Below are positions 2,653 to 34,673 of a stretch of DNA of 34,673 nt, one piece after another. How positions within the stretch are numbered: the first letter of the stretch is position 1; the number at the start of each line of letters is the position of its first letter. The DNA comes from a virus (lineage: Duplodnaviria > Heunggongvirae > Uroviricota > Caudoviricetes). The notes beneath the pieces are model-generated. The model was not told the origin of the DNA. It searched no databases and saw only the letters and a program-made list of their open reading frames with translations. The DNA lies in IMG/VR virus record IMGVR_UViG_2917408641_000007; one strand, 5' to 3'. The translations under genes and the position numbers were made by a program.

Positions 2653-2967
2653 TTAATTTATTTGTATGCCTGTTCTCTCTTCATCGAGTTTTTTTAGCTT
2701 GTATCGCATAGCTCTCACTGAATAAATTGAGCGGCAGGTTGCAATTGCTATTTCTTCTGCGGAGAACTTACCGAAAAGTGATACTTCGGCTCTTGTCCAT
2801 CGTCTTCCACGAAGTCGGCTAACAATGTCAGCGCCAATCCTTGTTGCTTTCGCCATTACTGCTTTTTCAGTCCTTTCCAGTTTTTCAGCGATAACTTCAA
2901 CTGGCATTGTCGCCGCTACCTCGCGCAAGAAATCGACTTCCCATTTCTCCCATGGAGTCTTTTTCAT
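2653..2967 (-). CDS. Hypothetical protein (104 aa)
   Basis: ORF-track ORF in the leftward operon immediately downstream of the Gp157-like gene; family not recognised. Confidence 0.45.
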
Positions 2968-2978
2968 AGTCGATACCG

Positions 2979-3467
2979 TTATTTGATAAGAAGTGAAGGT
3001 TTCCCAACTTTGAGTTGAGCGCCGGGGATATTTATTCCTGCTTTTAGTTGGTGTTTGATTGCCAGTTTGTCGGCTTTAATTGTCGTTTCAAACTCAACGT
3101 ATTCAGGAGGAAGGGCGCTTGAGTCGATGATTTCTACAGTTTCTGACGGTTTGCGGATTGTTACCTGGTGAATACCTGCTCGAATCTTTTTCTTGCCAAC
3201 CATTTCAAGCGATGACGCTATATACGCCATAATGCTATCAATCTTATTTTGAATTACTGCTGCTCGTTCATTCAGTGACTTTGCCTCTTCCTTGAGGCGT
3301 TCAGCATAACCAGACTCATTTTTAATAATGGCAAGAAGTTGCTCTATTTTATCGGTAAATTCTCCTTCCATGCCTTCTATTGTGTCAGCAATCATCTCTG
3401 GTTCTAAATCTGAATCCATCAATTTTGCGTATTCATTGGCAATTTCATACAGTTTGCTCACTGGCAA
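2979..3467 (-). CDS. Gp157-like phage protein (recombination-module accessory; assignment tentative)
   Basis: 162 aa, N-terminus MPVSKLYEIANEYAKLMD, coiled-coil rich; sits directly downstream of recT and overlaps it, as Sipho_Gp157-family genes often do. Confidence 0.4.
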   Translation of the reverse strand: MPVSKLYEIANEYAKLMDSDLEPEMIADTIEGMEGEFTDKIEQLLAIIKNESGYAERLKEEAKSLNERAAVIQNKIDSIMAYIASSLEMVGKKKIRAGIHQVTIRKPSETVEIIDSSALPPEYVEFETTIKADKLAIKHQLKAGINIPGAQLKVGKPSLLIK

Positions 3468-4347
3468 CCTCCAGTTTCGCTTTGCATTCTATGTAAATGG
3501 CTTGTACGTTCTGCTGCAATTTCATTCCAGATGTCAGGCGATATGCTTCTGCAAAATATCGCTTCAAATCATCCATGTTTTCTGCCTGAGCCATTTCATC
3601 ACAAAGAAGTTGTGCTTTATCCGTTATTTCCTGCTGGCGTATCCGTTCATCTTCGCGGATATCTTCCTCTGATTTGTGCGGCATAACTGGTTCCTGATGC
3701 ATACCTTCATCTTCGTTAAGTAGGTGAATGGCATTATCCAGTCGCTGGGCTTTAGGCCAGTATTTGCTGGCGCGTTTAACTATTGTTTTACGCGCCATCT
3801 CTTCCCAGAATGTCTTCCACGGTCCATTCTTTGCCTTGCTCGTTGCTTCCACAGCTTTAATTTCTGCCAGACTCATTTCTTCAGTGAGGTAGTCACCATC
3901 TGCTGTTTTAACCGTACAATAACCACCAACAATAGAGCCTCGCTCACCAAATGCGTTGTATTTGTGGGTTGGTGCTGAATCAAGGCCGTTTGATTCATAG
4001 GTGTCGTTTGAGTACACCAGTTTGCATTGCCCCCACTTAATTGATCCTGTCGACTGTGCAAGGTGAAGTAATCCCATATAGCTGATATCAAGGCAAACCA
4101 TGCCGTCGCGCGGAACCAGATAAGCCAGTTTGCTGGCCGGGTTTAAGGTGATGCCGATCGCCGCAACATTGATGATGGCGTTCTGTGCGCTGGTTGGATT
4201 TGCCAGTGCTGTTTTAGCCAGGTAATCATTTTTCTGGAAATACTGAATTGCAAACTGGCTTTCCTTAGCCCATGTCACCGTCTGTTCAGTCAATGCTCCG
4301 CAGAATAACTGCTCTTGCTGTTTAACGAATTCAACGATATTGCTCAT
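3445..4347 (-). CDS. recT: RecT-family single-strand annealing recombinase
   Basis: 300 aa; central region ...NAIINVAAIGITLNPASKLAYLVPRDG... matches the RecT-family core; position equivalent to lambda bet. Confidence 0.8.
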   Translation of the reverse strand: MSNIVEFVKQQEQLFCGALTEQTVTWAKESQFAIQYFQKNDYLAKTALANPTSAQNAIINVAAIGITLNPASKLAYLVPRDGMVCLDISYMGLLHLAQSTGSIKWGQCKLVYSNDTYESNGLDSAPTHKYNAFGERGSIVGGYCTVKTADGDYLTEEMSLAEIKAVEATSKAKNGPWKTFWEEMARKTIVKRASKYWPKAQRLDNAIHLLNEDEGMHQEPVMPHKSEEDIREDERIRQQEITDKAQLLCDEMAQAENMDDLKRYFAEAYRLTSGMKLQQNVQAIYIECKAKLEVASEQTV

Positions 4348-4655
4348 GCTGCTTCTCCAAAAATGTGTCTGCGTTTGAATATTGCGAAGGCATATTCAGC
4401 CTTAACTCTTTCGGTTATTGCATCCCAGAACCATTCAGCGGCTTTTTCCTGATAGTTACAGTCATCATCTTCCAGCCAGTCGATAGCGTCCTTAGTGTGT
4501 TCATCTGGTTTATATGAGCGAAGCATTTCGCTTATTGGGTCGCAACGTTTGCAGAGGCGATCAACTTCACTGTTGATTCGTTCGTAATCTTCATCAGTAA
4601 AACTTGCGATTATTTGCGATATTTCACGCTTATCATTCAGAGTCAGAATCATCAT
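4344..4655 (-). CDS. Hypothetical protein (103 aa)
   Basis: ORF-track ORF, stop overlaps the recT start (ATGA), acidic; family not recognised. Confidence 0.45.
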   Translation of the reverse strand: MMILTLNDKREISQIIASFTDEDYERINSEVDRLCKRCDPISEMLRSYKPDEHTKDAIDWLEDDDCNYQEKAAEWFWDAITERVKAEYAFAIFKRRHIFGEAA

Positions 4656-4736
4656 CTTTCTCCTGTTCTTTGTGCTGATTGAGCATTTTGTTCATCTGAC
4701 GAATGAATTCTTCGTCTGACCAGTTATCTGTAAAAC

Positions 4737-4907
4737 TCATGGACGGCCTTGTTGTTTCAAAATATCCCAAAGCTTTTCGAGCAAGCTTTTCATTCTTGGT
4801 TGTTTAAAGTCTGCTCCGGTTAAAATGTTTTTTCGTGAATGCTGTACCGATAAAATCGGGTTGAAAGGGCGAACCGATGCCGCCCCTGCAATAGCGAACT
4901 GTTGCAT
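4737..4907 (-). CDS. CIII-like small protein (56 aa), candidate FtsH inhibitor
   Basis: ATG with AAGGAG RBS; product MQQFAIAGAASVRPF...MKSLLEKLWDILKQQGRP resembles lambda CIII (MQYAIAGW...SLLERI...LIDILNQPG); stop overlaps an ATG of a following 35-aa ORF. Confidence 0.4.
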   Translation of the reverse strand: MQQFAIAGAASVRPFNPILSVQHSRKNILTGADFKQPRMKSLLEKLWDILKQQGRP

Positions 4908-4982
4908 AGGATGCTCCTTCTGTTTGATTGCATAACGAAAACGCCTCGAGTGAAGCGTTATTGGTATGCGGTAAAGCCGCGC

Positions 4983-5294
4983 TTAGGCGGCTGATGTTTC
5001 TTCTTTCAGGCTTTCGAGATATTTACGTGGGTCGTCGTAACATTGGCATTCGCTGTACCAATCCACCCAGCGATCAGTAAGCCCCATTTCTGATAAATCT
5101 TCATCGGTAAGGCTCTCATCCCACATCTCAAGGCCGTTAGCATTGCAGTAGTCAGGCTTGATGTTGTTGTCATACTGAAAGGCGTCATAATCAGCCAGTG
5201 CATCCATCAGGCGAACACCCTCTTCAACACTTGCCACTTCTACAATGAACGGCTTCATAGGTACTTGCGGGATATGCCAGACACGTAATTTCAT
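4983..5294 (-). CDS. Hypothetical protein (103 aa)
   Basis: ORF-track ORF with GGAGGAAAT upstream of the ATG; Cys/Trp-rich acidic protein; family not recognised. Confidence 0.5.
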   Translation of the reverse strand: MKLRVWHIPQVPMKPFIVEVASVEEGVRLMDALADYDAFQYDNNIKPDYCNANGLEMWDESLTDEDLSEMGLTDRWVDWYSECQCYDDPRKYLESLKEETSAA

Positions 5295-5306
5295 ATTTCC
5301 TCCGTC

Positions 5307-5334
5307 AAAAAAATTGCCCTCAATCTGAGGGCAA
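5307..5334 (-). terminator. Rho-independent terminator (minus strand)
   Basis: Perfect 9-bp inverted repeat TTGCCCTCA/TGAGGGCAA with 3-nt loop, followed on the minus strand by a 7-T run. Confidence 0.5.
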
Positions 5335-5450
5335 AGAAGATTTCCAATAATCAGAACAAGTCGGCTCCTGTTTAGTTACGAGCGACATTGCTCCGTGTAT
5401 TCACTCGTTGGAATGAATACACAGTGCAGTGTTTATTCTGTTGTTTATGC

Positions 5451-5477
5451 CAAAAATAAAGGCCGACTATGCGGCCT
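5451..5477 (-). terminator. Rho-independent terminator (minus strand) after the membrane-protein gene
   Basis: Stem AGGCCG/CGGCCT with 6-nt loop, followed on the minus strand by TTATTTTTGG; lies just 3' of the 5482..5847 ORF. Confidence 0.45.
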
Positions 5478-5481
5478 AAAA

Positions 5482-5847
5482 TTACTTAACCAATGATGCT
5501 GCATATTCGATAAGGTAAAGCTTTGGAGCTAGCCAAATTTTCAACCAGTCGAAATAATTGAAGAAAACAACAATAGAAGTAATCGCTATTCCTGATGTGA
5601 CAAGTAGCGATAAAATAACGACATCCGCATCATCTCCTTTATTCCATGCAAAAATCATCAGATAAACACATGCTATAATCACCAATACACAGAGAGCCTG
5701 AATCCCAGCTGATGATACGGCGTGCCACATCAAAAGCTGATGTATGACATCAGGAATCTGTACTTGGCTAAATGAAACAGCCGCATCTATTCCATTGCTG
5801 GCTTTTTGCAGTAGTTCTACGAGAATCTTGTTTGCTTGTTCTTCCAT
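5482..5847 (-). CDS. Small inner-membrane protein (121 aa, two predicted TM helices)
   Basis: Hydrophobic stretches AGIQALCVLVIIACVYLMIFAW and VVILSLLVTSGIAITSIVVFFNYF; start is 8 nt after the N stop with GAGGTGA RBS. Confidence 0.55.
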   Translation of the reverse strand: MEEQANKILVELLQKASNGIDAAVSFSQVQIPDVIHQLLMWHAVSSAGIQALCVLVIIACVYLMIFAWNKGDDADVVILSLLVTSGIAITSIVVFFNYFDWLKIWLAPKLYLIEYAASLVK

Positions 5848-6540: not shown

Positions 6541-7896
<1,356 letters not shown>

Positions 7897-29159: not shown

Positions 29160-30572
29160 TTGGCTACATGGCAACAGGCTGGTAATTCAGGCGCGCTTCT
29201 TGCCGGGTTAGGCGGCATGAACTCCAACGCTCCAAGAGCAAGTGATGCAGACGCCACGCTTGCATACATTCGACAGAATAATGAGATGGAGCGTTCAGGA
29301 CGTAATAACGTTGGCTTGCAGGCTTTGCAGGGCATTTCATCTGTCATGGATATGTATAAGCAGATGGATCAGCAGAAGCGGCAGCAAGAGTTTCAGCAGG
29401 CTTATGCTGATGCATATACATCTGGTGACCGCGATGCCATGCGAAAACTGGCATCACAGTATCCTGAGCAGTTTGACGCTGTAAGAAACGGCATGAAATT
29501 TGTCGATGAAGACCAGCGTTCCACTGTCGGCACACTGGCAGCAAGTGCCAGACTCGCAGCTTCATCTCCAGAAGCCATGATGTCATGGTTGCAGAACAAC
29601 TCATCTGAGCTTACTCGTGCCGGAGTAGACCCTCTGGATGTGGCTAAAATGTATCAGCAAAATCCACAAGGTTTCACAGAGTTTGTTGATCACCTTGGAA
29701 TGGCTGCACTTGGTCCAGAACAATATTTTCAGGCACAAGACAGAATCGTTGGTCGTGAGATTGACCGCGGAAAACTTGCAGAGACAATCCGCAGCAATCA
29801 GGCTGGCGAGACACTTCAGGAGAGAGGGCAAAACCTTTCCTATCAGTCAGCAATGACTGGGCACAATATCGCAGCACAACGCTTGGCTCTGGATCAGCAA
29901 GAGTTCGGGTTTAAGATGCAGCAAGCGCAGGAAAAGGCTCAGCAGTTGATTAGCGAAGCACCTAAGCTGTCAGTAAACATGGAAAAAGGCATCGAGACGG
30001 CTGTAAACAATGCCACAGCATCATCAAACTCAGCCAATTCTATGAGTGCGCTTGCTCAACAGTTCAGAGCAGAAAAACCAACGACAGGTTTGTTCGGTAA
30101 CGCACAGAACATGTTCGCAAAACTTACCGGAAGCGATACGACATTGCGTGATTTGCGCATCCGCCAAAATGCCCTTGTTAACAGTCAGGTTCTTAAATTC
30201 CTACCCCCCGGCCCCGCAACGGATAAAGACGTTGAGATCGTTCGGCAGGGTGCGCCAACTGACATGGATAACCCTGAGACGGTCGCAAGATGGCTTGATG
30301 CAATGGCAAACCTTGAGCGACGAAACGCGCAGTTTAATGAGTTTAAAGCCGAGTGGATGAGCGCGAATGGCAACCCTGGACAATCGCGTAATGGCGGTCA
30401 GATATTGGGGTTGGATGTTAAAAAAGGTGAATCATTGGGGAGTGCCGTTAAGCGGTATATGTCAATGAATACTGACGCAGCGCCAGCACAAGATTCGACA
30501 CCTTCAGGAGGACCACGGAATCAGGTTGGATCATATACCTCAAAATCAGGCATTCTGATCCTACCCACGTAA
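29160..30572 (+). CDS. Ejection protein, P22 gp20-like, with C-terminus altered by the IS insertion
   Basis: 470 aa; apparent TTG start with GGAGG RBS; last 5 codons (LILPT-stop) are encoded by the IS end; native frame would continue QFTVE-stop across the insertion site. Confidence 0.7.
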   Translation: MATWQQAGNSGALLAGLGGMNSNAPRASDADATLAYIRQNNEMERSGRNNVGLQALQGISSVMDMYKQMDQQKRQQEFQQAYADAYTSGDRDAMRKLASQYPEQFDAVRNGMKFVDEDQRSTVGTLAASARLAASSPEAMMSWLQNNSSELTRAGVDPLDVAKMYQQNPQGFTEFVDHLGMAALGPEQYFQAQDRIVGREIDRGKLAETIRSNQAGETLQERGQNLSYQSAMTGHNIAAQRLALDQQEFGFKMQQAQEKAQQLISEAPKLSVNMEKGIETAVNNATASSNSANSMSALAQQFRAEKPTTGLFGNAQNMFAKLTGSDTTLRDLRIRQNALVNSQVLKFLPPGPATDKDVEIVRQGAPTDMDNPETVARWLDAMANLERRNAQFNEFKAEWMSANGNPGQSRNGGQILGLDVKKGESLGSAVKRYMSMNTDAAPAQDSTPSGGPRNQVGSYTSKSGILILPT

Positions 30573-30585
30573 TGTGGACACGGCC

Positions 30586-31440
30586 CTAAGCGAGATTATG
30601 GTTTTCAAATTGTTCCGGGCTGAGACCGCCACAGGCACTGTGACGACGCCAGCGATTGTAATCACACTCGATATAATTAAACACCGTTGCCCGCATTATT
30701 TCCCGGCTGCTAAAGCGTTCCCCGTGGATACATTCCACCTTCAGCGAATGAAAGAAGCTTTCCACACAGGCATTGTCATAACAGTTGCCTTTCGCACTCA
30801 TACTGCCACGCAGGTTGTGTCGCTTCAGCAGCGCCTGATAATCCCCTGAACAGTATTGACCACCACGGTCCGTATGAACAATGACGCTTTCCGGGCGTCT
30901 TCTCCGCCACAACGCCATTTGCAGTGCATCACAGGCCAGTTGTGCTGTCATTCGCGGTGACATCGACCAGCCAATAACGGCGCGTGACCACAGGTCGATG
31001 ACTACTGCGAGATACAACCAGCCCTCATCGGTACGCAAGTACGTGATGTCACCCGCCCACTTCTGGTTCGGGCCGCTGGCGCTGAAGTCCTGCTCCAGCA
31101 GATTCTCCAATACGGGCAGGCCATGTGCACGGTAGCTGACCGGGCTGAACTTCCGGCCGGCTTTCGCCCGCAGCCCCTGACGACGCAGGCTGGCGGCAAT
31201 GGTTTTAATATTGAACTCCGGCAGTTCGTCAGCAAGGCGGGGAGCACCGTATCGCTGCTTTGCCTCAAAGAATGCCTTATGAACAGCGGTATCGCAGGTG
31301 AGCCGAAACTGTTGGCGCAGGCTCATCTGGTGACGACGCCTGAGCCAGACATACCAGCCGCTGCGGGCAACCCGAAGTACACGACACATCGCTTTGATGC
31401 TGAACTCTGCCCGATGATTTTCGATGAAGACATACTTCAT
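30586..31440 (-). CDS. IS3-family transposase OrfB (DDE catalytic domain)
   Basis: 284 aa ...[39 protein letters not shown]...[10 protein letters not shown]...[10 protein letters not shown]... DDE motif; start overlaps the orfA stop (ATGA), shifted frame. Confidence 0.85.
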
Positions 31441-31736
31441 TTCAGGCGCTTCGCGAAGTATGTCGCGGCCTTTTGGAGGATGGCCAGTTCCTCAGCCTGC
31501 TCCGCCAGTTGTCGTTTAAGGCGGACATTTTCAGCGGCCAGTTCGCTTTCGCGCTCTGACGAACTCATTTGTTGCTGCTGTTTACTGCGCCAGGCATAAA
31601 GCTGAGATTCATACAGGCTGAGTTCACGGGCTGCGGCGGCCACACCGATGCGTTCAGCGAGTTTCAGGGCTTCGTTACGAAATTCAGGCGTATGTTGTTT
31701 ACGGGGCTTCTTGCTGATTGATACTGGTTTTGTCAT
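31437..31736 (-). CDS. IS3-family transposase OrfA (HTH)
   Basis: 99 aa [54 protein letters not shown]... typical IS3 OrfA; AAAAG slippery motif near the 3' end. Confidence 0.85.
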
Positions 31737-31815
31737 GAGTCACCTCTGGTTGAGAGTTTACTCACTTAGTCCTGTGTCCACTATTGGTGGGTAAGATCAT
31801 TCAATTTACGGTGGA

Positions 31816-33657
31816 ATGATGAAAGTAACTGCAAACGGTAAGACATTTACCTTTCCTGATGGTACGAGCACCGAAGATATTGGCACCGCCATTGATGAGT
31901 ATTTTGCTGGTCAGGCTGTTCAGCAACAAACAGTTAATCAGGCCAATAATGTACCAACACGGAAAGAACCATCATTGATGCAACAAGCTGGCGATTGGCT
32001 CACTGGTGGTCAAAGTGCAGGGCAAATTGCAGAACAGGCTGGTCGTGGTCTGGTAAACATACCATTTGACGTATTGCAGGGTGGCGCAAGTCTGATTAAT
32101 GCAATCAGTCAGGGGCTTGGTGGGCCAAAAGTATTGGATGATGTCTATCGTCCAGTCGATCGACCGACAGACCCTTATGCGCAAGCTGGAGAAACAATTG
32201 GCGGGTATTTAGTTCCAGGAGTTGGAACGGCAGGAAGCATGGCTATTGGATCACTGGCAGAGGCCGCAAATCAGAAAGGCGATTTCGCACAAAATGCAGC
32301 CAAAAATGCCGGAGTTAACCTTGCCGCTCAGGGGGTTCTTTCCGCAGCAGCAAAGGGAATAGGGCGTGGAATAACGGCTATAAAAGGTGATATTTCGCCA
32401 GAAGTGGCGAAGAAAATTGCCACATCAGAATCGATGGGCGTGACACCAATGACATCTGATGTTATCCCGCCGAAAAATGCTTTCACTCGCGGCCTTACTC
32501 AGGATGCCGAGGGGGCTTTGCTCGGGACAGGCTCAAAGCGAGCGGAGCAATATGCAACGCGTAGTAAGCTGGTAAGTAATTATTTTGACCGTTTTGGTGA
32601 GTACAACCCTGATGATGTGGTGAAATCTCTGACCACCACGTTAAGGGGGCGGAAGGATGCCGCTGGCGCTGTTATCAATGACGTCACCAATAAAATGGGT
32701 AATGCCGCAGTTGATACCACAAACACTATGAATGCTCTGAATACAGCGATCGCAAGACAGGAACGGCTTGGGACGTCTGCCAATCAAAGCCTGCTTACAT
32801 CCTTGCGTAACCTACGTGAAGAATTAGCAAACCCTGCAACTGATTTGGATGTTACGTTTGATCTCCTGCGTCAGCACAGAACAGCATTTAGATCTAATGT
32901 TCAGGGAGATGCTATGGTCTTCCCCAACCAGGCAAAAGCAGCTACCAATATGGTAGAGAATGCAATGTCAAAAGACCTTCGTAACGCAGTTGCAAAAAAC
33001 CTCGGTGCATCAGACGCAGCAAAATACCTTAAAGCAAATTCTGATTATGCAAACGTTTATAATAAGGTGCTTAATAAAAACATTGCTAACAAACTCAACA
33101 AGGCAAGCAGTGAAGCCAGCCCTGAACTTATAAATACCGTTGTATTAAGCAGAAAACCATCTGACGTGAAACGAATATGGAGCGCACTGGATGATAAAGG
33201 GAAAGATGCTATGCGTGCAGCTTACGTCAGCAAAATAGCGGAAAAGGCCGGTGACTCTCCAGCCAAGTTCATCACTGAAGTTAATAAGCTGAAATCTCAG
33301 TCAGGCGGTGAAATTTACAACACTATTTTTTCTGGAAAGCACATGAAAGAGCTTGATGCTCTTCATGAAGTTCTACAGCAAACAGCAAGGTCAGACACCG
33401 CAAATGTAGTAACTCAGACGGGGCAATCACAAGCCAACAGGATAAGGACGATTGGCGCAACTGCGACTCTTGGTGTATCAATGGGGCTTGAGGCTGGCTT
33501 TGGTGCAATGATGCGTTTGTATGAGTCCAAAGCAGCAAGGAATGCTCTCTTACGTCTGGCAAACACTAAAGCTGGAACGCCAGCCTATGAAAGAGCGTTG
33601 AATACCGCTGCAAATGCCATCAGGCCGCTGCTTGCTACTGAGGCAACACAGCAGTAA
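31816..33657 (+). CDS. Ejection protein, P22 gp16-like
   Basis: 613 aa immediately downstream of the IS; start ATGATG with GGTGGA RBS retained; size and position match P22 gp16. Confidence 0.75.
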
Positions 33658-33681: not shown

Positions 33682-34071
33682 TTAACATTTTCTTTTTACT
33701 TTTCCAACAAAGGCTTTGGTTGAATCCATATTCCCATAACCAGAAATGGTTTTCGACATTAAAACTGTTCCATTAGGATGTATTACCCATGAGTCGATAA
33801 CTCGTTGAGTTTCGCCATTCGCGCCGATTCCGATGATGGAGTTTTTAGACAATGCTTTGTAAGCCATGCCGCCCGCATCCGTCCCAGAATATGTGATACT
33901 GGCATCTTCACCGTTTGTCTTAATGATGAATGTTCCACTAAAACCATCTTCTTCCGGTTGAAAATTATTTCGTTCTGAATAGCTTATTCCGTGCATATCT
34001 CCAACGACCCAGCACTCTGCTGAGACAGAAAACGAGAAGACAAAGAAAGCCATTGCTATAATCAATTTCAT
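33682..34071 (-). CDS. Secreted protein of unknown family (129 aa), paralog of ORF 6541..6945
   Basis: Signal peptide MKLIIAMAFFVFSFSVSA|ECW...; shares ECWxV..HG, SxxY.G, LSxN..G, W.I, SK, STK.FVG.V...C pattern with the cI-coupled ORF; last gene of the mnt operon. Confidence 0.6.
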   Translation of the reverse strand: MKLIIAMAFFVFSFSVSAECWVVGDMHGISYSERNNFQPEEDGFSGTFIIKTNGEDASITYSGTDAGGMAYKALSKNSIIGIGANGETQRVIDSWVIHPNGTVLMSKTISGYGNMDSTKAFVGKVKRKC

Positions 34072-34086
34072 TTTAAGCCCTTATTG

Positions 34087-34422
34087 TTATTGATTCTTTT
34101 TGCACGGAAATGTTTTTCCTACTGCTAGGGCGGTTAGTATAACTGCATTCTCATTTCTTGATTCTGGGTTTTTGTTTAGATATTTCTCAACGATATCGGT
34201 GTATTGATACATGTCAACGCCATCAGGAGGACATAGAGAACCAATTAGTATCAATGAGTCAGTTACTCCGCGCAAATATCCAGTAATGTAAAGCGATGAA
34301 AAATCATCACCATTTTTACCTTGTTGAATGTTGTAAAGAAGGTCATTACCCGTTTGAAGCTCGCGCAGCTCAGCACTGGAAGAAGAGACAACTGCTAACA
34401 GGAACAGTGATAGAAATCTCAT
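34087..34422 (-). CDS. Secreted small protein of unknown function (111 aa)
   Basis: Signal peptide MRFLSLFLLAVVSSSSA, two Cys in the mature part; start overlaps the mnt stop (ATGA). Confidence 0.55.
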   Translation of the reverse strand: MRFLSLFLLAVVSSSSAELRELQTGNDLLYNIQQGKNGDDFSSLYITGYLRGVTDSLILIGSLCPPDGVDMYQYTDIVEKYLNKNPESRNENAVILTALAVGKTFPCKKNQ

Positions 34423-34673
34423 TTCAAATCCTTTTCATAAATCTTTTTAAGTGTCTCAAACACTATAGCCTTGAACTGCTCGGCCTGCTGATCAGCCAAG
34501 CGTTCAGCTTCGTCGCGATATCCTGTAATCGGTGATGGTTTTGATAGTGCATCCTGAACGATTTGTAATAACTCAGAGTTCATTGACCTTCCGTTAGCCT
34601 CGGCTCTTAATTTCAATTTTTCTCTTACTTCCAAAGGCATACGGAAGTTAAAGTGCGGATCATCTCTAGCCAT
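34419..34673 (-). CDS. mnt: Mnt repressor (ribbon-helix-helix, P22 immI type)
   Basis: 84 aa MARDDPHFNFRMPLEVREKLKLRAEANGRSMNSELLQIVQDALSKPSPITGYRDEAERLADQQ... matches P22 Mnt; start codon is at the last three bases of the window. Confidence 0.85.
   Translation of the reverse strand: MARDDPHFNFRMPLEVREKLKLRAEANGRSMNSELLQIVQDALSKPSPITGYRDEAERLADQQAEQFKAIVFETLKKIYEKDLK

Follow-up and report, generated by a model that had tools for sequence, protein, structure and literature searches.

We analysed a 34,673-nucleotide stretch of viral DNA (Caudoviricetes; IMG/VR record IMGVR_UViG_2917408641_000007; herein the window) that carries, between the DNA ejection gene 16 and the repressor gene mnt of a P22-like prophage, two small open reading frames (ORFs), ORF111 and ORF129. 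In our reading this interval, the place where P22 has sieA, is a lysogenic-conversion ("moron") slot holding two independent lysogen-expressed periplasmic proteins, with a probability of about 0.6. ORF111 very probably belongs to the Rap1a/Tai family of immunity proteins, and ORF129 is, with near certainty, an exported protein of the Hex family. A first-pass annotation of the window had described both as periplasmic proteins of unknown family, co-transcribed with a lysogeny repressor and forming a candidate undescribed two-component exclusion or conversion module. The position is as claimed, between gene 16 and mnt. The family claim failed: ORF111 is a member of Rap1a/Tai4 (PF18602), and ORF129 of the phage 434 Hex/Sf6 gp38 family, for which an exclusion phenotype has been published. 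With both proteins in known families, the cassette does not amount to a new kind of system; an exclusion or conversion role for them is plausible. What is directly established is the order of the genes, their coupling and export signals, the families to which they belong, and their conservation and independent distribution.

The minus-strand order at the end of the window is mnt, ORF111, ORF129, converging on gene 16 on the plus strand; the coordinates and the stop/start overlap agree with the arrangement described in the first-pass annotation. The features are as follows (coordinates are those of the window):

34673..34419, minus strand: mnt, 84 aa; immI maintenance repressor, first gene of the operon
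34422..34087, minus strand: ORF111, 111 aa; start overlaps the mnt stop as ATGA
34372..34422, minus strand: predicted Sec signal peptide of ORF111, MRFLSLFLLAVVSSSSA, with cleavage before ELREL; Kyte-Doolittle 2.95; SSA at -3 to -1
34072..34086, minus strand: ORF111/ORF129 spacer, 15 nt; holds the ORF129 Shine-Dalgarno sequence
34071..33682, minus strand: ORF129, 129 aa; Hex family (PHROG 2651), begins 15 nt past the ORF111 stop
34018..34071, minus strand: predicted Sec signal peptide of ORF129, MKLIIAMAFFVFSFSVSA, with cleavage before ECWVV; Kyte-Doolittle 3.04; VSA at -3 to -1
31816..33657, plus strand: gene 16, ejection protein, 613 aa; convergent neighbour, bounds the sieA slot
34217..34190, minus strand: sigma-70-like site inside ORF111, TTGACA-16-TATCGT

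The product of mnt matches Pfam Arc (3.7e-28) and Repressor_Mnt (1.3e-11), and the gene is 82% identical to P22 mnt at the nucleotide level. Its start codon is the final triplet of the window, and Pmnt therefore lies outside. Between mnt and arc, the E. coli prophage L002 (99.3% identical) retains an intact Mnt operator palindrome (AGGTCCACGGTGGACC) as well as the Pant hexamers of the P22 type (TTGACA/TATATT). The plus strand reads tcat at 34419-34422, that is, ATGA made of the ORF111 start and the mnt stop. Shine-Dalgarno sequences lie 6 nt 5' of the start of ORF111 (AAGGA) and 6 nt 5' of the ATG of ORF129 (AAGGG). The stop codons of ORF129 and gene 16 are 24 nt apart; the L002 homologue of gene 16 is named "P22-gp16 family phage DNA ejection protein" by the NCBI Prokaryotic Genome Annotation Pipeline (PGAP). 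A terminator scan of the minus strand from mnt through the end of ORF129 found no terminator-like hairpin of the kind that would uncouple the two genes from mnt. The ATGA overlap, the 15-nt spacer and the absent terminator fit co-transcription with mnt, from which we infer read-through.

Other signals in the region are unremarkable. Terminator-like sites are no commoner than in shuffled sequence, promoter-like sites show no excess (2 vs. 2.8 ± 2.0 expected in shuffled sequence), the sequence 3' of ORF129 folds ordinarily (z -1.29), and there is no Rfam match. The sigma-70-like site inside ORF111 may in principle drive ORF129 without mnt; statistically it is unsupported.

Between diverged copies, nonsynonymous divergence (pN) of ORF111 and ORF129 is 0.14-0.35 against a synonymous divergence (pS) of 0.66-0.87. 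Because synonymous sites are saturated while pN stays at this level, the comparison indicates purifying selection on ORF111 and ORF129 and that both are real genes. Prophages in some two dozen complete chromosomes of E. coli match the final 1.07 kb of the window at 99.0-99.3% identity; in E. coli USMARC-50748 the prophage adjoins intS and a tRNA-Arg gene. Secretion of both proteins, an element of the first-pass annotation that held, is predicted from the features of their Sec-type signal peptides: K/R in the n-region, an h-region with an 8-aa Kyte-Doolittle mean of ~3.0 and small residues at -3 and -1, all retained across homologues. Beyond the signal peptide, neither ORF111 nor ORF129 has a hydrophobic segment.

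ORF111 matches Pfam PF18602 over the entire profile (positions 1-90/90; E 1.2e-14; 55.0 bits against a gathering cut-off of 27.7) and PHROG 3870, a phage family of unknown function (1.8e-43). All six ORF111 homologues found have PF18602 as a precomputed domain, and 99% identical copies are labelled "Rap1a/Tai family immunity protein" by PGAP. The signal peptide is present in 7/7 homologues despite its variable sequence; C64 and C107 are invariant among the 7 and align with both cysteines of Agrobacterium tumefaciens Tai4. The AlphaFold2 model consists of four helices at moderate confidence (predicted local distance difference test [pLDDT] 73.6). Searched with Foldseek against the PDB, it returned 62 matches, the top five of which (6ije, 3zfi, two chains of 6ijf, and 4bi8) are all Tai4/Rap1a chains, two of them in effector complexes (probability 0.85-0.99; template modelling [TM] score 0.46-0.59; ~25% identity).

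Members of the Rap1a/Tai4 family are periplasmic and neutralise peptidoglycan endopeptidases of the Tae4/Ssp type delivered by a type VI secretion system (T6SS) (PMC7400221; also established family knowledge). ORF111 is like Rap1a of Serratia marcescens and Tai4 of Salmonella, Enterobacter and Agrobacterium in its full-length profile match, signal peptide, helical fold and cysteine pair; it differs in having no adjoining Tae4/Ssp effector, in being borne by a temperate phage and in being tied to the mnt repressor gene. As no Tae4/Ssp amidase effector gene lies beside ORF111 or its relatives in any context seen, ORF111 is an orphan immunity gene, and the absence of an effector neighbour does not remove it from the PF18602 family.

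In the mechanism we propose, the Pmnt transcript would read through ORF111 and ORF129, so that both would be made in the lysogen. ORF111 would be exported to the periplasm, as a dimer in keeping with the Rap1a/Tai4 family, and would there bind and block Tae4/Ssp-type peptidoglycan DL-endopeptidases injected via the T6SS of rival Enterobacteria; by this orphan immunity the lysogen would resist T6SS cell-wall attack. Family membership tips the balance modestly towards such action of ORF111 against T6SS amidases. Effector-less immunity genes against T6SS toxins are known on mobile DNA as orphan immunity or acquired interbacterial defence (AID) clusters (bioRxiv 10.1101/471110; PMC7400221). AID arrays sit on integrative and conjugative elements and chromosomal islets, whereas the gene here is a single one, which a P22-like phage carries in its regulatory operon. 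More distant genes of the Rap1a/Tai kind are present on further mobile DNA, in Bacillus phage Dartukuta and on 46-kb conjugative plasmids of Pseudomonas syringae (hits H56, H114-H116); in the environmental phage DSL-LC04 (L121 2432-2758) such a gene is labelled "type VI amidase" though its match is to the immunity protein.

T4 Spackle (gp61.3) offers an alternative in which both proteins are anti-phage and ORF111 inhibits the virion peptidoglycan hydrolase of a superinfecting phage. Spackle is a small helical periplasmic phage protein that inhibits the gp5 lysozyme and acts in superinfection exclusion, guarding the cell against an incoming peptidoglycan hydrolase (PMC7677548). The ORF111 gene likewise lies in the exclusion slot, beside a Hex homologue, and Rap1a-like genes are found in phages that look lytic, one of them a Bacillus phage with a host that lacks a T6SS. 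However, every characterised PF18602 member neutralises NlpC/P60 endopeptidases of the Tae4/Ssp type (established family knowledge; PMC7400221), and the wall-degrading domain in the ejection protein of a Serratia prophage with an ORF111 relative (L012) is an SLT lytic transglycosylase, a different enzyme class. The likeness to Spackle is an analogy of mechanism only; Spackle is made early by a lytic phage and its target is a phage lysozyme. We judge this alternative improbable.

The second protein, ORF129, has its paralogue in the window itself, behind the c2 repressor gene:

6541..6945, minus strand: hex, 134 aa from M25 of a 158-aa ORF (window 6541-7017); ATGA overlap with the c2 stop
6942..7574, minus strand: c2/cI repressor, 210 aa, imm434 type; the gene upstream of hex

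The hex product of the window is identical to the phage 434 "repressor protection protein"/Hex at 132/134 positions, and the ATGA repressor/hex arrangement recurs in 434 and Sf6 (gene 38, gp38); from the sequence, M25 is likely the true hex start. ORF129 matches PHROG 2651, a phage family of unknown function (2.3e-60), has tblastn matches in phages 434, Sf6, HK633 and HK446, and is 29% identical to the c2-linked Hex (BLASTP E 5e-14), which upholds its description as a paralogue of the repressor-coupled ORF. An exhaustive profile search defined the Hex family as 173 clusters at 50% identity; few of these relatives come up in a word-indexed protein search. In 128 representatives, a hydrophobic core is present in 96%, position -1 of the predicted cleavage site is A, S, G or T in 112, and a conserved Cys stands at median position 21. 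The mature form of ORF129 (~111 aa) is a predicted soluble β-barrel: the AlphaFold2 model (pLDDT 85.8) is small and all-β, with nine strands, and the invariant N- and C-terminal cysteine pair of the family falls on its first and last strands, where it probably forms a disulfide.

PGAP starts homologues of ORF129 at an internal Met, giving proteins of 104 or 122 aa (L002 6083-6397, L016 1582-1950, L017 3577-3945), which removes the signal peptide wholly or partly and masks export. We favour the 129-aa form because a Shine-Dalgarno sequence precedes the long start and the signal is conserved family-wide. ORF129 has no match in Pfam, NCBIfam or PADLOC, only chance-level matches in sequence and profile searches of the PDB, and nothing below E 0.005 when its model is compared with the BFVD viral structures. 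Two other classes of envelope protein were considered and rejected. ORF129 has no lipobox and so is not a lipoprotein: relative to the predicted cleavage site the Cys stands at +2, preceded in most members by E, N, Q or D. As an outer-membrane 8-stranded barrel (OmpX/Lom/PagP-like) it fails for want of membrane-spanning strands and a C-terminal aromatic β-signal. In Escherichia phage Huey (hit H70; PQ850609.1 25928-26323), feature names under the match to a Hex homologue include "PagP" (lipid A acylation protein) and "transcriptional repressor"; if the PagP label is that of the hex gene, it is probably an annotation error suggested by the small β-barrel.

ORF129 resembles phage 434 Hex, Sf6 gp38 and PHROG 2651 (29-35% identity) in length, signal peptide, cysteine pair and placement downstream of a repressor gene. 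Unlike 434 Hex, it lies in immI behind mnt and the Rap1a gene and adjoins gene 16, rather than lying behind cI, and it is strongly diverged, such that its target may differ. Once exported, ORF129 would fold as a disulfide-closed barrel and hinder infection by heterologous phages; the obvious periplasmic target would be the gp7/gp20/gp16 DNA-delivery conduit. We hold phage exclusion as the role of ORF129 tentatively, at a little short of even odds.

The 434 hex gene ("heterologous exclusion") is co-transcribed with cI from PRM, and on loss of Hex, P22 is no longer excluded by λ-imm434 lysogens of Salmonella (PMC3564112). On the model of 434 Hex in the same study, ORF129 would have a different role, that of a cytoplasmic protein which, like the 434 "repressor protection protein", blocks RecA-stimulated cleavage of c2 and stabilises lysogeny: hex- lysogens show higher recA-dependent spontaneous induction, and in vitro the RecA-stimulated cleavage of both the 434 repressor and the P22 repressor is inhibited by sHex, a fragment of 61 residues (PMC3564112). 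Against this stands the family-wide signal peptide. Moreover, sHex begins at E43 of the 158-aa ORF, the exact predicted signal-peptidase site (cleavage between TSANS and ECW), and overexpressed full-length Hex stopped growth; export was never considered, the words signal, periplasm and membrane having 0 mentions in the 2013 paper (PMC3564112). A second copy behind mnt, a repressor not cleaved by RecA, would also make little sense. A cytoplasmic ORF129 is thus most unlikely in our view. By its sequence features the Hex family looks periplasmic, in conflict with the published cytoplasmic RecA-interference model of 2013, which is in need of re-examination.

To see whether the two genes form a pair, we compared IMG/VR loci that have an ORF129-like gene, taking the best 80. 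The Hex-like gene is convergent with gene 16 in 77/80, the other three being of the c2-coupled 434 type; in phages of this group it fills the sieA slot almost constantly. What lies between it and mnt varies. A Rap1a gene is present in 14 loci; in ~21/80 an opposite-strand gene for a 139-aa transthyretin/PEGA-like protein separates the two (e.g., L016 2089-2508); the remainder have other sequence or none. In another P22-like phage (L005), mnt is followed by a 150-aa lipoprotein gene (lipobox LSGC, 2002-2454, overlapping the mnt stop) and then by the Hex-like gene, and in Salmonella phage Emek the Hex-like gene stands alone by gene 16, far from mnt. Neither the transthyretin/PEGA-like gene nor the lipoprotein has a family match above threshold.

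Each ORF111 relative that was located (62-98% identity) follows mnt directly; the carriers are P22-like prophages of E. coli and of two species of Serratia. The order mnt, Rap1a (65%), Hex-like (50%) and gene 16 is found in a different prophage of E. coli. In Serratia sp. JSRIV002 (L012), mnt and Rap1a face the convergent gene 16 homologue with no Hex-like gene between, and in Serratia fonticola (L013 7001-7715) mnt is followed by tandem Rap1a paralogues of 112 and 119 aa (30% identical) and then by gene 16. The second of these takes the place that the Hex-like gene has in E. coli, an arrangement reminiscent of Serratia marcescens, which has multiple Rap proteins. Since most Hex-like loci have no Rap1a, and Serratia has Rap1a without Hex-like, Rap1a is an optional insert in an mnt...Hex-like frame. 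Among 5426 complete E. coli genomes, the whole cassette is present in 24 and part of it in 294. It has also moved between virion modules by recombination, as judged from a locus (L027; IMGVR_UViG_2778261249_000012, 2750-5568) where a cassette 98-100% identical to that of the window adjoins a gene 16 of only 59% identity; in other prophages the homology breakpoint falls within the signal-peptide coding part of ORF129 (window ~34022).

This distribution bears on the obligate two-component module, in which the two proteins would interact and jointly mediate exclusion or surface conversion. All 16 IMG/VR contigs with a Rap1a gene have the order arc (divergent), mnt, Rap1a, Hex-like and convergent gene 16, with Hex-like thus following Rap1a in 16/16. 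Two of these loci are strongly diverged (mnt 34% or gene 16 29% identity), and the pairing is kept in diverged copies (Rap1a 74%, Hex-like 49%, gp16 29%; also L014/L015). The association is, however, one-way: Hex-like occurs without Rap1a in 66/80 loci, and Rap1a without Hex-like in both Serratia prophages. Each gene is found without the other in several forms (Hex-like alone, with a lipoprotein gene or with the opposite-strand gene; Rap1a alone or paired with a second Rap1a), and both families act singly elsewhere: Tai4 is paired with its effector, while Hex lies behind cI. The two-component proposal of the first-pass annotation does not survive these data, and we regard an obligate module as very improbable.

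Several points weigh against the reading of the interval as a slot for two lysogen-expressed periplasmic proteins with the activities proposed above. For ORF111, the Foldseek E-values are weak (0.18-0.6), the direct sequence match to solved Tai4 is marginal (E ~0.1), and identity to any Rap1a/Tai4 protein with a known effector is only ~25%. The sequence places it in a separate subfamily, from which the effector is not readable by similarity; with so weak a resemblance, and with immunity in the Rap1a/Tai4 family being specific, its target cannot be named. For ORF129, the only biochemical study of Hex gives it a cytoplasmic role, in blocking RecA-stimulated repressor cleavage (PMC3564112). Finally, in the ~21/80 loci where the opposite-strand gene intervenes before mnt, the Hex-like gene has to be transcribed from a promoter of its own, so ORF129 too may not depend on Pmnt. 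The arrangement in the window fits co-transcription with the repressor, while these relatives of ORF129 must be expressed otherwise.

The slot has a known occupant in P22. Read from its gene 16 end, the P22 interval begins with sieA, which has a promoter to itself, and continues through a terminator and orf59a to mnt; every gene is on the strand of mnt. SieA is found in only 22/66 P22-like phages; the inner-membrane protein is thought to block the gp7/gp20/gp16 DNA-delivery conduit (PMC10461980). ORF111 and ORF129 share with SieA the genomic slot (gene 16 to mnt, mnt strand) and, in our reading, expression from the prophage, whereas SieA is a three-transmembrane inner-membrane protein and they are predicted soluble exported proteins. 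Neither is a diverged SieA (BLASTP against P22 SieA, E 3.1 for ORF129 and 3.6 for ORF111). As a Hex paralogue, ORF129 is a candidate exclusion gene for the P22-like phages that have no sieA (44/66 surveyed). A bolder form of our reading would make the Hex family a widespread periplasmic exclusion class that blocks the ejection conduit of P22-like, and perhaps other, phages and replaces SieA in E. coli-type P22-like phages; the cytoplasmic RecA model would then be wrong, and the Pmnt transcript would be a "periplasm-shielding" operon against both phage DNA and T6SS toxins. We consider this larger proposal speculative and, taken whole, rather unlikely.

A further proposal is that the Hex family, ORF129 included, is an unrecognised immunity family against interbacterial toxins acting in the periplasm, which would make the cassette a two-gene orphan immunity array. 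The substitution of a Rap1a paralogue for the Hex-like gene in S. fonticola hints at it. Distant contexts of Hex-family genes speak against it. No T6SS or toxin gene stands next to a Hex-family gene in the ~8 non-P22 contexts examined, and one scan of genome contigs gave five Hex-family loci, none with toxin or T6SS neighbours. This lack of toxin neighbours weakly favours a stand-alone anti-phage role over toxin immunity, and the sole known genetic phenotype of the family is phage exclusion. An immunity role for Hex is in our estimate unlikely.

The neighbours found in these contexts are of other kinds. In the L010 prophage, the Hex-family gene overlaps the end of its 121-aa neighbour, and that neighbour and a cro/YdaS-like gene are divergently oriented, again a repressor-operon position. 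Islands with defence-type genes hold Hex-family genes in L007 and L117; in the L007 island, of Cupriavidus necator H16, the neighbours are an OLD-like ATPase and a gene with a RES domain. A Hex-family gene is beside a superfamily 1 (SF1) helicase in Comamonas, and in another island one is near toxin-antitoxin-like genes, which were assigned by ORF reading and not by a family search. In two chromosomal islands that are unrelated to each other, RNase_T-type exonuclease genes lie near Hex-family genes, at L007 7830-8492 (C. necator H16) and at L119 2186-4462 (Arsukibacterium indicum), maybe by coincidence.

Three aspects of the cassette were not found in the searchable literature: that P22-like phages (E. 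coli, Serratia) carry a T6SS-type immunity gene in their immI operon, that the sieA slot of these phages is usually filled by a hex paralogue, and that the Hex family is predicted to be periplasmic. No paper on phage-borne Rap1a/Tai4 was found there either. The word "undescribed" in the first-pass annotation can thus be kept for the Rap1a/Tai gene in a P22-like immI operon and for nothing else, both families being known. If ORF111 works as its family suggests, lysogenisation alone would give the host resistance to T6SS attack, tied to the switch that maintains lysogeny. The spread of interbacterial defence is documented for conjugative elements and chromosomal islets; we came across no account of it in P22-like phages.

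The window also holds an insertion sequence (IS) of the IS3 family near the junction of genes 20 and 16. The element spans 1,244 bp (window 30556-31799) and lies 20 nt before the junction of the gene 20 stop and the gene 16 start. Its terminal inverted repeats are TGATCCTACCCAC... and ...GTGGGTAAGATCA, flanked by a 3-bp TTC target duplication (30553-30555 and 31800-31802), and it carries two genes:

31736..31437, minus strand: IS3 orfA
31440..30586, minus strand: IS3 orfB

The element replaces the final gp20 codons and cuts gene 16 off from the late operon. No interruption is present at the insertion point in the L002 prophage (99% identical); the prophage in the window is probably defective in DNA injection.

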